From assembly GCA_902533945.1 (NCBI GenBank), contig CACANS010000001.1, positions 10,437 through 74,436 on the forward strand: a stretch of 64,000 nucleotides of DNA, read 5' to 3'. Below the pieces are notes generated by a model. The model saw only the letters and a program-made list of their open reading frames with translations, searched no databases and was not told where the DNA came from. A program made the position numbers and the translations under genes. The first letter of the stretch is position 1; every line of letters begins with the position of its first letter. This document shows positions 55,470 to 57,987 of the stretch, in pieces. Source of the stretch: an uncultured Pelagibacteraceae bacterium. GTDB taxonomy: Bacteria; Pseudomonadota; Alphaproteobacteria; Pelagibacterales; Pelagibacteraceae.

Positions 55470-56162
55470 TTACTTAGAATTTATTTTTTTTTTTTCTTTA
55501 ATTAAATAATTATAAATTTCGTAATCTTTTTTTAGGAATTCTTTTAAATTTATTAAAGCGTTTTTACTTAAAGGAATATCAACTTTTTTTGTTGTTATAA
55601 TTTCTTTTTTAAAATCAGTTTTATCAAACGAATTTAAATTTAATCTTAATTTTAAAAAATCTTCAGTATCTTTTAATAAACTATCATGAGTTATTAAATA
55701 GGCTGGTAAATTTTTTTTTAAGAATTCTATTGTGATAAAACTATTTAGATCTTCATTTAAATGATGCGAAAGTCTAATGTAGCTTCTTGCTTTTTTGCTA
55801 AATATTTCTATAGCCAGTTTTTCAATCGTTGGATAAATAGAAAAAAAATCATCATAATATGTTATGAATTGACCATTTTTTAAATGAAAATATGCACTAG
55901 CAAATCTTTCGATAGGGTCTCTTATTGAAATAAAATAATTACAATTTTTATTGAACTTAGGTTTAAAATAATGTGTAGGAAATTCTATATTTGACTGATC
56001 TTTTAAATTTTTTTTTATTAATGATGTTATAATAGACGTTGAGCACCTAGGAACTTGAGCAAATATTAACTTTTTATTTTCCAACCTTAGATTACCAGAA
56101 ATCAAATTAGAAACATCATTTAGATAATATAAAAATTTTATTCTTTTTAATATGTTTTTCAT
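55470..56162 (-). CDS. Sulfotransferase-family-like protein
   Basis: Degenerate 5'-PSB motif (QVPRCSTS), 3'-PB motif IRDPIERFASAY, C-terminal DYEIY; extremely AT-rich. Confidence 0.6.
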   Translation of the reverse strand: MKNILKRIKFLYYLNDVSNLISGNLRLENKKLIFAQVPRCSTSIITSLIKKNLKDQSNIEFPTHYFKPKFNKNCNYFISIRDPIERFASAYFHLKNGQFITYYDDFFSIYPTIEKLAIEIFSKKARSYIRLSHHLNEDLNSFITIEFLKKNLPAYLITHDSLLKDTEDFLKLRLNLNSFDKTDFKKEIITTKKVDIPLSKNALINLKEFLKKDYEIYNYLIKEKKKINSK

Positions 56163-56198
56163 GCTTAAATATTTCTATTAGATAATTGTTATTAAATA

Positions 56199-56450
56199 AT
56201 GAAAATCAATCATAGTATTTTTAATTTAAATTATTATCAGCTATTAATCAAAATTATTTTTTTAATTTTAGTAACTATTCCCTCTATTACTTATGCCGAA
56301 GATAATAAAATTGCATCAGTTATAGAAATTTCTGGAGATGCAATAGCTCTTACCGAAGATGGGGACGAAAGAGAATTAGAAATATTTGATAATTTATTTA
56401 TAGAACATGAAATAGATGAAAAATTTGGTATAAAAGGCCGATTTATATAG
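56199..56450 (+). pseudogene. Truncated exported (FecR-domain-like) gene fused to an sfuC tail remnant
   Basis: Signal peptide plus IASVIEISGDA...RELEIFD, then EHEIDEKFGIK, which is sfuC C-terminal sequence. Confidence 0.65.
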
Positions 56451-56470
56451 ACCATATAGTTTGCTTTTAA
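56403..56470 (+). repeat. Direct repeat copy 2 (frameshifted sfuC 3' remnant)
   Basis: Encodes EHEIDEKFGIK(R)PIYIDHIVCF* with a 1-nt deletion versus QHEVDEKFGIKRPINIDHIVCF*. Confidence 0.9.
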
Positions 56471-56491
56471 ATTTTATTTAATATAATTTAT

Positions 56492-56560
56492 TTTAAAGGG
56501 GTGTCGAAAGACTGAGATTAAACCCTTAGAACCTGTCCGGTAATTCAGAAAGGGATTAAA
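56492..56560 (+). ncRNA. TPP (THI-box) riboswitch, variant aptamer
   Basis: P2 AAGGG/CCCTT, P3 GTC-GAAA-GAC, J3/2 TGAGA, GAACCTG, TAAT loop, AGGGA; overlaps the SD and start of thiV. Confidence 0.85.
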
Positions 56561-57987
56561 TGAAAGAAATAAACATAATTAGCCAATCTTCAGCGATTAC
56601 ACTAACTTTTATCACGTGTATTTTGTTTGCAATCATAGGAATTATTTATTCAAAAAAATACCGTGGAATAAATAATTATTTAGTTGCGAATAGAACAGTT
56701 GGAATTTTTTCATTAACAACAAGTTTTGTTGCATCGGCTCTTGGTACATGGATTTTATTTGGACCAGCATCTGCTGCAACATGGGGAGGTATAGGAGCTG
56801 TTATTGGATATGCTTTGGGAACAGCATTTCCACTATTTATATTAATTTATGTGGGAAAGAAAATTAGAAAGTCATATTCAAAAGCAAGAACTTTAATAGA
56901 GGTAATTCGAATAAGATTTGGCTTAAATTTATTTAAGCTAATACTTTTTTTATCAGTTTTCTATATGACAATATTTTTAATTGCAGAAGTTACTGCCGTT
57001 TCAATATTAGTTAATTATATTTCGGGAACTGATCTATGGATAACTTCTTTTATAATAATTATTTGTTCACTAATTTACACACTATATGGAGGTTTAAGAG
57101 CTTCTATTTTTACTGATAATATACAATTTATTGTTTTTGGAATATTGTTATTAATTAGTTTTAGTTATTTAATTTCAATAAATAACGAGTTTAGCTTTGA
57201 GTATATTAAAACAAATAAACCTGAATTGTTAAGTATAAAATATTTACCTAATTTCACAGCTGGTTTAACTTTTTTTATCGCAGTTGCAGCAACAAATCTT
57301 TTTCATCAAGGTAATTGGCAAAGAGTATATGCAGCAAAAAATCATAAAATATTAAAAAATAGTTTGATTTTATCATTTTTTATTATTGTACCTATAGTAT
57401 TTGTAATGGGATTTTCAGGTTTAATAGCAGTTTCAAAAAATTCAAATATTTTTCCTGACCTAGCATTTTTTTCATTGTTATTAAAAGAAAATATTTGGAT
57501 AATTTCATTTATAATATTATTGTTAGCAATATCATTAACCATTAGCAGTATTGATACTTTAATTAATGCTATATCAAGTTTAATTATAGTTGATGTTAAT
57601 AAATTATTAAAATTTAAAGGAGATTATTTAAATTTTTCTAAAAAAATAGTACTTATTTTATCTTTGATAGTTTTTTTTGTAGCATCAGAAGGTTTTAGTA
57701 TATTATACTTATTTTTGTTAGCTGATTTATTTTGTTGTGCGGCAGTTTTAACTATTTTTTATAGTTTTTATGACAAAAGTATTAAAGAAAAAAATGCTTA
57801 TATTTCAATTATTATTGGTTTATTAATTGGACTTTTGCTATTTCCGAGTCCGGATTTTTCTAAATCTATTTTGATAGGAATTTTAATTCCGGTCCATTAT
57901 TTTCCAGTATTTATCACAAAATCATTACTCTTTTTGTCATTTTTATTTGCTACATTTTTTCCAATTCTTACTTGGAAAATGAGATAA
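56560..57987 (+). CDS. thiV: Sodium:solute symporter, probable thiamin-pyrimidine (HMP) transporter ThiV
   Basis: SSS-family motifs (YTLYGGLRASIFTD, WQRVYAA), multi-TM, preceded by a THI box. Confidence 0.8.
   Translation: MKEINIISQSSAITLTFITCILFAIIGIIYSKKYRGINNYLVANRTVGIFSLTTSFVASALGTWILFGPASAATWGGIGAVIGYALGTAFPLFILIYVGKKIRKSYSKARTLIEVIRIRFGLNLFKLILFLSVFYMTIFLIAEVTAVSILVNYISGTDLWITSFIIIICSLIYTLYGGLRASIFTDNIQFIVFGILLLISFSYLISINNEFSFEYIKTNKPELLSIKYLPNFTAGLTFFIAVAATNLFHQGNWQRVYAAKNHKILKNSLILSFFIIVPIVFVMGFSGLIAVSKNSNIFPDLAFFSLLLKENIWIISFIILLLAISLTISSIDTLINAISSLIIVDVNKLLKFKGDYLNFSKKIVLILSLIVFFVASEGFSILYLFLLADLFCCAAVLTIFYSFYDKSIKEKNAYISIIIGLLIGLLLFPSPDFSKSILIGILIPVHYFPVFITKSLLFLSFLFATFFPILTWKMR

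Follow-up and report, generated by a model that had tools for sequence, protein, structure and literature searches.

A clade-wide, shortened variant of the TPP riboswitch precedes thiV in SAR11 bacteria

The thiV leader and its locus

The stretch analysed here (the window, 64,000 nucleotides from an uncultured Pelagibacteraceae bacterium) carries on its + strand a gene for a sodium:solute symporter of 475 aa (56560..57987; PF00474, E 1e-16). The nearest 80 homologous loci encode proteins 68-78% identical to that of the window; 79 of them are labelled Pelagibacteraceae or Pelagibacter, and one, on a 2.9-kb contig, is labelled Flavobacteriaceae. The gene is therefore the SAR11 thiV, and its product is likely an HMP importer, a role assigned in PMC11452348 (like all literature named below, cited from part of the text). 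Overlapping the start of thiV, positions 56487-56572 (+) match the TPP riboswitch family RF00059 in cmscan with 51.9 bits (E 2.2e-8), short of the gathering score of 54.3 bits. No second RF00059 match was found elsewhere in the 69%-complete source genome, and no other Rfam family matched this RNA at E up to 1. Two ORFs directly upstream of the riboswitch, of 230 aa (55470-56162, -) and 83 aa (56199-56450, +), have no Pfam match. The SAR11 thiV element was catalogued as a TPP riboswitch by Meyer 2009 (PMC2704228), the word 'TPP' being absent from those of its supplementary files that were searched. It is also a TPP riboswitch in McRose 2014, PMC10881298 and PMC11452348, and in Carini 2014 as cited by PMC11452348 and PMC4260697; according to PMC11452348, its ligand and activity need confirming.

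The aptamer core, from P2 to the GA after P4, occupies 59 nt (56497..56555, + strand, as are all features below) and is defined by the RF00059 match and an alignment of 92 distinct homologues. Pairing and the 92 aligned rows place its pyrimidine-sensor arm at 56497..56526. This arm comprises P2 (56497-56500 / 56523-56526), P3 with its GAAA loop (56503-56505 / 56510-56512, whole 56503-56512), the pairs of which compensate among homologues (U-A 55, C-G 37), and J3/2 UGAGA (56513-56517), in which G40, G42 and A43 correspond to 56514, 56516 and 56517. The E. coli numbering was placed by us via G40/G42/A43/G60 and agrees with the structural literature cited. The J2/4 linker (56527..56531), identified by sequence, is in canonical aptamers the bulged strand of a k-junction (PMC10573300). 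It leads into the shortened P4-P5 arm (56532..56553), in which P4 (56532-56534 / 56551-56553) is followed, according to the pairing analysis, by G60 (56535) opposite purine 56550, by a new pair (56536-56549) that replaces A61.C77, and by a P5 stack of C-G, a C.A mismatch (56538 / 56547), G-C and G.U. The loop UAAU (56541-56544) has 4 nt if closed by the G.U pair; with that pair counted as open, it has 6 nt. Both the letters of the arm quoted in an earlier note on this DNA, CCUG-UCCGG-UAAU-UCAG-AA-AGGGA (56532-56555), and the elements it had recognised (P2, P3 with the GAAA loop, UGAGA, P4 and the UAAU loop) are exactly as read there. The spacing from CCUG to AGGGA is 15 nt in the window RNA versus 19 nt in the E. 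coli thiM sequence fetched for comparison.

Distribution and origin of the short arm

An aptamer could be parsed at 79 of the 80 protein-selected, species-level Pelagibacteraceae loci. Only five forms of the arm occur in these 79 loci, with 73 identical to that of the window; P3 takes 39 forms, J3/2-P2 12 and J2/4 14. RF00059 matches 123 of the 151 genomes of the family and reaches its cut-off in 25, thus missing most such RNAs. Ninety-one of these matches were fetched as loci and, together with the 80 protein-selected ones, yielded 168 parsed aptamers out of 171 loci; the invariance of the arm rests on these 168 and on the 79 protein-selected loci. The pooled collection of 211 loci, in which the sets overlap and 80 members were chosen by a pattern fixing most of the arm, was not used for this purpose.

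Four arm types occur in the family. The canonical 19-nt arm occurs in genera g10 and g12 and once in g17; a 17-nt arm retaining C77-G78 is found in g17 and in part of g1, the genus of the window; and the 15-nt short arm is present in g1, g2, g4, g5, g7, g8, g9, g11, g13 and g18. Genus g14 (L021-L029) has a separate 16-nt arm that has lost C77-G78 and retained P1, with at least 4 bp in four of five flank pairs in the Rfam register. Of the 77 genomes of the window's genus, 63 show the short-arm pattern (62 of 76 when one unpublished genome is set aside), a further 12 have the C77-G78-keeping form, and in two neither element was found. The short-arm pattern is absent from the 60 genomes of the sister family examined. 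It has one match in 397 other alphaproteobacterial genomes and ten in viral contigs, all treated as chance because none shows a 5' G-run and P3 on inspection. A metagenome scan returned at least 117 matches, and the 80 examined all lie in DNA of 23-37% GC with SAR11-like genes.

In a tree of 35 chosen ThiV proteins of the family, rooted on seven distant homologues, all 26 proteins with C77-lacking arms form one clade (support 99/98) opposite those with canonical and C77-keeping arms. A quick tree of 87 rows agrees with a single clade of C77 loss, and canonical aptamers lie near four of the seven outgroup genes. The short-arm RNA is thus a variant shared by a clade and of single origin, while both the riboswitch family and the thiV locus were known before. 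Of the two readings given in the earlier note, a riboswitch variant or simple decay, this supports the first.

The altered pocket

In canonical RNA, C77 and G78 contact the beta-phosphate and A61 and G60 contact Mg (bioRxiv 10.1101/2025.01.21.634073), while U62 and U79 bulge outward and shape the pocket (bioRxiv 10.1101/155580). This pyrophosphate loop (G60, A61, U62 / C77, G78, U79) is not intact in the short form. C77 is absent from every parsed short-arm sequence, the U62 and U79 bulges are lost, and positions 61 and 77 are paired in all 92 distinct aptamers, as U-A in 65, A-U in 25 and G-U in 2. These tallies count sequences and not events: on the tree, the swap between U-A and A-U happened once or twice. 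At position 64/75, 84 rows have a C.A mismatch and 8 have U-A; G60 is retained in 91 rows and A75, mostly unpaired, in all 92. Position 78 stays a purine, alternating freely between A and G, and G78 itself persists in many deeper-branching genera. The pyrimidine pocket (P2, P3 and J3/2 UGAGA), by comparison, is present in the window RNA, and CUGAGA is invariant in 92/92 rows, although the parsing pattern partly demands it.

Which positions count as deleted hinges on the alignment register. In the Infernal register, A61/U62 and C77/G78 are deleted and G72 is read as U. A register that keeps P5 close to that of E. coli instead deletes U62, A67, G72 and U79 and leaves 61, 77 and 78 substituted. 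Both yield identical pairs and retain G60 and A75, and the earlier conclusion that pyrophosphate contacts have been lost stands.

How much such a loss may cost can be judged from E. coli thiM, in which TPP, bound at 0.74 nM by the wild type, is bound at 2200 nM after A61U alone (~3000-fold weaker), while ligands of the pyrimidine pocket still bind and fold the mutant RNA; on wild-type thiM, TMP binds ~1.4 and thiamin ~3 orders of magnitude more weakly than TPP (bioRxiv 10.1101/2025.01.21.634073). By this comparison of sequences with measured mutants, the view that the SAR11 variant would no longer read phosphate is well grounded. The thiazole side is different: in the canonical complex the thiazole ring is nearly contact-free (PMC9171761, PMC9495366) and G72 caps open space (PMC9171761). 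The suggestion that a lost thiazole contact has altered specificity is therefore not supported, and the loss of G72 does not exclude thiamin-type ligands.

Helix P1 and gene control

P1 was described as intact, and in the window it can indeed form, with five A-U pairs between 56492-56496 and 56556-56560. Across the class it is not conserved. The mean P1 run of 103 distinct short-arm flank pairs is 0.65 bp versus 0.72 +/- 0.10 for shuffled flanks, and only five of the 103 reach 4 bp or more, versus 12 of 13 canonical SAR11 aptamers, in which the mean is 5.31 bp (1.03 shuffled). None of the 80 metagenome loci examined (of at least 117) exceeds 3 bp, and at one locus (L310) the aptamer begins immediately downstream of the stop codon of the upstream gene. 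The absence of a conserved P1 from the SAR11 short form is, as far as the sources cited go, a new observation. P1 was accordingly rejected as a conserved switch helix for the short-arm class, and the window's 5-bp helix, drawn from A/U-rich flanks, is likely a chance pairing. The loss of P1 may represent general streamlining, since P1 is weak as well (best run 2) in all three sister-family aptamers with a canonical arm. The canonical junction is a k-junction, that is, a k-turn with a third helix, and sets the direction of both ligand-binding helices (PMC10573300); P1 would then be an added and dispensable helix.

A predicted ribosome-binding site (56550..56555) lies in the 3' strand of P4. Its AAGG ends 6 nt before the AUG, a spacing that falls in the 6-9 nt peak seen among 485 long ORFs of the source genome, 93 of which have a motif of this kind; the source assembly yielded no 16S 3' end. 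AGGGA (56551-56555) is inside the aptamer, as had been stated of the Shine-Dalgarno sequence, but the companion statement that the A of the AUG (56560) also lies within it needs qualifying: with P1 unconserved in the class, that placement is likely incidental to the source genome. The start codon mostly follows AGGRA by 2-5 nt in short-arm loci versus 6-9 nt in canonical ones. Predicted formation of P4 without ligand at 37 C is 0.40 for the window and on average 0.51 for 55 short-arm aptamers, versus 0.78 for 18 canonical ones; the overall folding energy is no better than that of shuffles (z 0.06 to 1.23). No terminator-like site occurs within 56150-56700. A promoter scan of the + strand upstream of the aptamer gave no match, the -10-like profile was flat, and the one RNA run searched matched contigs of relatives only, with neither a start site nor expression seen. 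Translational control, as proposed before, fits this anatomy. The folding predictions suggest that P4, carrying the predicted ribosome site, is likely the switch helix, and we infer a ligand-dependent translational OFF switch for thiV.

Thiamin pathway genes and ligand pools

Arm type showed no association with thiL, thiC, thiN, thiE or thiG. thiC is missing from all 51 genomes examined, including those with canonical arms, thiE is present in all 51 and thiG in 48 (it was not found in one incomplete genome, G000); thiD occurs in all five genomes examined for it. thiN (51 genomes) and thiB (five genomes) gave no match over cut-off, so free thiamin has no obvious route in these cells. thiL exceeds its cut-off in 23 of 68 genomes, with one more just below, and is missing in 44, short-arm and canonical groups alike; arm type therefore does not follow known TPP synthesis. 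The pyrimidine-bearing pools of these cells are thus HMP, HMP-P, HMP-PP, TMP and TPP. The 44 Pelagibacteraceae lacking thiL (in g2, g4, g5, g7, g10, g12, g14 and g17), many of them 93-100% complete, lack thiN too, which extends the unexplained loss of thiL reported for SAR11 subclade IIIa (PMC10030771).

The gene under the short arm is thiV at 73 of the 80 metagenome loci examined (of at least 117), NMT1-like at one and truncated at six. In genus g2 the short arm also heads lone NMT1/THI5-like and tenA genes. The former (L310:1559-2425 and L311:2054-2920; also L133, L137, L140, L141 and L263) encodes 289 aa with a domain match from residue 12, has no adjoining permease and finds its nearest solved structure in 4NMY, a weak match (E 1e-5); it may represent a different HMP source. 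In G091 the short arm stands directly before a lone tenA (L312:1826-2549; TIGR04306 above cut-off), which occupies the lpxB-adjacent site where other g2 genomes have the NMT1-like gene. thiV was not found in four of the NMT1-like g2 genomes or in the tenA genome, which are 82-92% complete.

Within the window's genus, tenA is absent from all 57 short-arm genomes. The 12 genomes with a C77-G78-keeping aptamer (L313, L332-L339) have a divergent thiV together with tenA. Their ThiV proteins, 96-99% identical to one another and ~50% identical to that of the window, group with g17/g10/g12 transporters on the tree, which suggests that this cassette arrived by transfer or is an old retained allele. In g17 (L314:1605-4505 and L020) the riboswitch heads a putative porin of the TorF/Gcw_chp type followed by thiV and tenA, the porin being a candidate outer-membrane channel for B1 precursors. 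Two canonical aptamers (L007:749-1510, L016:1582-2343) head a short-chain dehydrogenase of the PRK08642 family, resembling the published oarX arrangement in the part of that account consulted; thiV was not found in G026, a genome 99% complete.

Discussion

Our preferred view of the thiV leader, held with about even confidence, is that a TPP riboswitch shortened throughout the clade, with its pyrimidine pocket kept and its pyrophosphate loop closed by a base pair, now senses B1 compounds at lower affinity and blind to their phosphates, and probably turns off thiV translation. The aminopyrimidine ring would bind J3/2 between G42 and A43 while the UAAU loop docked on P3, and the two contacts together would stabilise the marginal P4 and mask the ribosome site. 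Since these cells have neither thiamin kinase nor a thiamin transporter, the RNA would read TMP along with TPP, and HMP, HMP-P and HMP-PP would likely contribute more weakly. HMP uptake in HTCC7211 drops within an hour of exposure to HMP (PMC11452348), a fall that could have other causes.

The best placed alternative, in our judgement unlikely, is that the RNA is still in effect a sensor of TPP (or of TMP and TPP), its pocket rebuilt or merely detuned. Judging from their near-constant retention and from the survival of G78 in deeper-branching genera, G60, A75 in its C.A mismatch and the purine at 78 might together make up a new site for metal or phosphate. End-product feedback is the rule for riboswitches of this class, and among the B1 pools that of TPP is usually the largest. 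Binding of TPP at 2.2 uM persists even in the A61U mutant (bioRxiv 10.1101/2025.01.21.634073). On the other hand, C77 and the U62/U79 bulges are gone, position 78 alternates freely between A and G, and thiL is missing from 44 of 68 genomes, with both arm groups among them.

A rather more doubtful possibility is the one closest to the earlier note, that the shortened loop and arm cap the pocket so as to exclude the thiazole half, making the RNA a ~59-nt, P1-less derivative selective for the imported pyrimidine (HMP, HMP-P or HMP-PP). All identified genes headed by a short arm are of the pyrimidine branch (thiV, NMT1/THI5-like, tenA), arm type tracks the import cassette within the window's genus, these cells offer free thiamin no obvious route, and the odd pairs, being invariant, hint at a new surface of precise shape. 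Against this, G72 caps open space next to a thiazole that is unbound even in the canonical complex, so its loss creates no steric block, and the 12 tenA genomes share one cassette and hence count as one event. Nor is the link between tenA and arm type clean: one short arm stands directly before tenA in G091, and the canonical-arm genera give only weak TenA-family matches. Dependence on HMP, offered as the rationale, does not distinguish the two arm types, thiC being lacking from all 51 genomes examined. AmMP, the other ligand proposed, fits badly because short-arm genomes of the window's genus have no tenA and because AmMP scarcely competes with HMP uptake (PMC11452348). A switch to HMP or AmMP specifically is further disfavoured by the report that P4-P5 variants bind thiamin, TMP and TPP alike. 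If the HMP-selective reading were true, the RNA would represent a second, structurally unrelated HMP-type riboswitch class, through which, in the most abundant bacteria of the ocean, the substrate itself would feed back on its importer.

It is quite improbable that no B1 compound is sensed and that the RNA is a fixed structure or protein-binding site setting thiV expression. The lack of a conserved P1 would agree with such a role, and according to PMC11452348 HMP transport behaved as constitutive in induction tests and predicted TPP aptamers of diatoms did not regulate; however, the whole clade has kept the ligand-binding letters of J3/2 and the docking loop UAAU, and the element stays with thiamin-pathway genes when the gene downstream is swapped. 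Finally, decay or sequencing error unique to the source genome, to which only the score under the Rfam cut-off would point, is virtually ruled out by the identical arm at most loci, by the presence of the pattern in most genomes of the genus and by the compensatory changes.

The thiV leader shares much with the canonical TPP riboswitch (RF00059, E. coli thiM): P2, P3, J3/2 UGAGA, J2/4, P4, the UAAU loop, the GA after P4 and a place before a thiamin-pathway gene (here thiV, NMT1/THI5-like or tenA). It differs in an arm 4 nt shorter, in the loss of C77 with A61.C77 turned into a covarying pair, in the absence, in the P5-preserving register, of the U62/U79 bulges and two loop letters, in an unconserved P1 and in a score under the family cut-off. 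On the pyrophosphate loop and P1, the SAR11 short form falls outside canonical RF00059 membership. The element that Meyer 2009 (PMC2704228) described before a sodium:solute symporter is the same, at the same type of locus; in the parts of the published SAR11 accounts consulted these RNAs are noted as short only, and we found no description of the altered pocket in the full-text literature, in which coverage of subscription papers is thin. Marine B1 studies treat the SAR11 thiV riboswitch as a TPP sensor. Most published genomes of the window's genus have the short form. The HMP-PP riboswitch (thiS motif; Atilho 2019, PMC6478431) shares only the proposed link to a pyrimidine precursor: as described there, it is an ON switch found in Firmicutes, unrelated in fold and embedded in a terminator, whereas the window RNA has no terminator-like site.

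The nearest parallel is found in McCown 2017 (PMC5473149), where many bacterial P4-P5 mutants are mentioned, from unpublished work (Roth et al., in preparation), as binding thiamin, TMP and TPP alike; a full paper on these variants was not found in the same thinly covered literature, and the comparison is by description only. The SAR11 form is likewise altered in P4-P5 and by analogy likely works like these non-discriminating variants. Its special traits, next to them, are the shortened L5, the missing P1 and a host that, having neither thiamin transporter nor kinase, is unable to use thiamin. If it does, SAR11 would give sequences to a type of variant met in print only as a mention. It also offers a natural series within one family, each member ~60-90 nt long: the canonical 19-nt arm, the C77-G78-keeping 17-nt arm, the 16-nt arm with P1 and the 15-nt arm without it. 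This series bears on the throttling of HMP uptake and on P1-less switching by aptamers of the TPP class.
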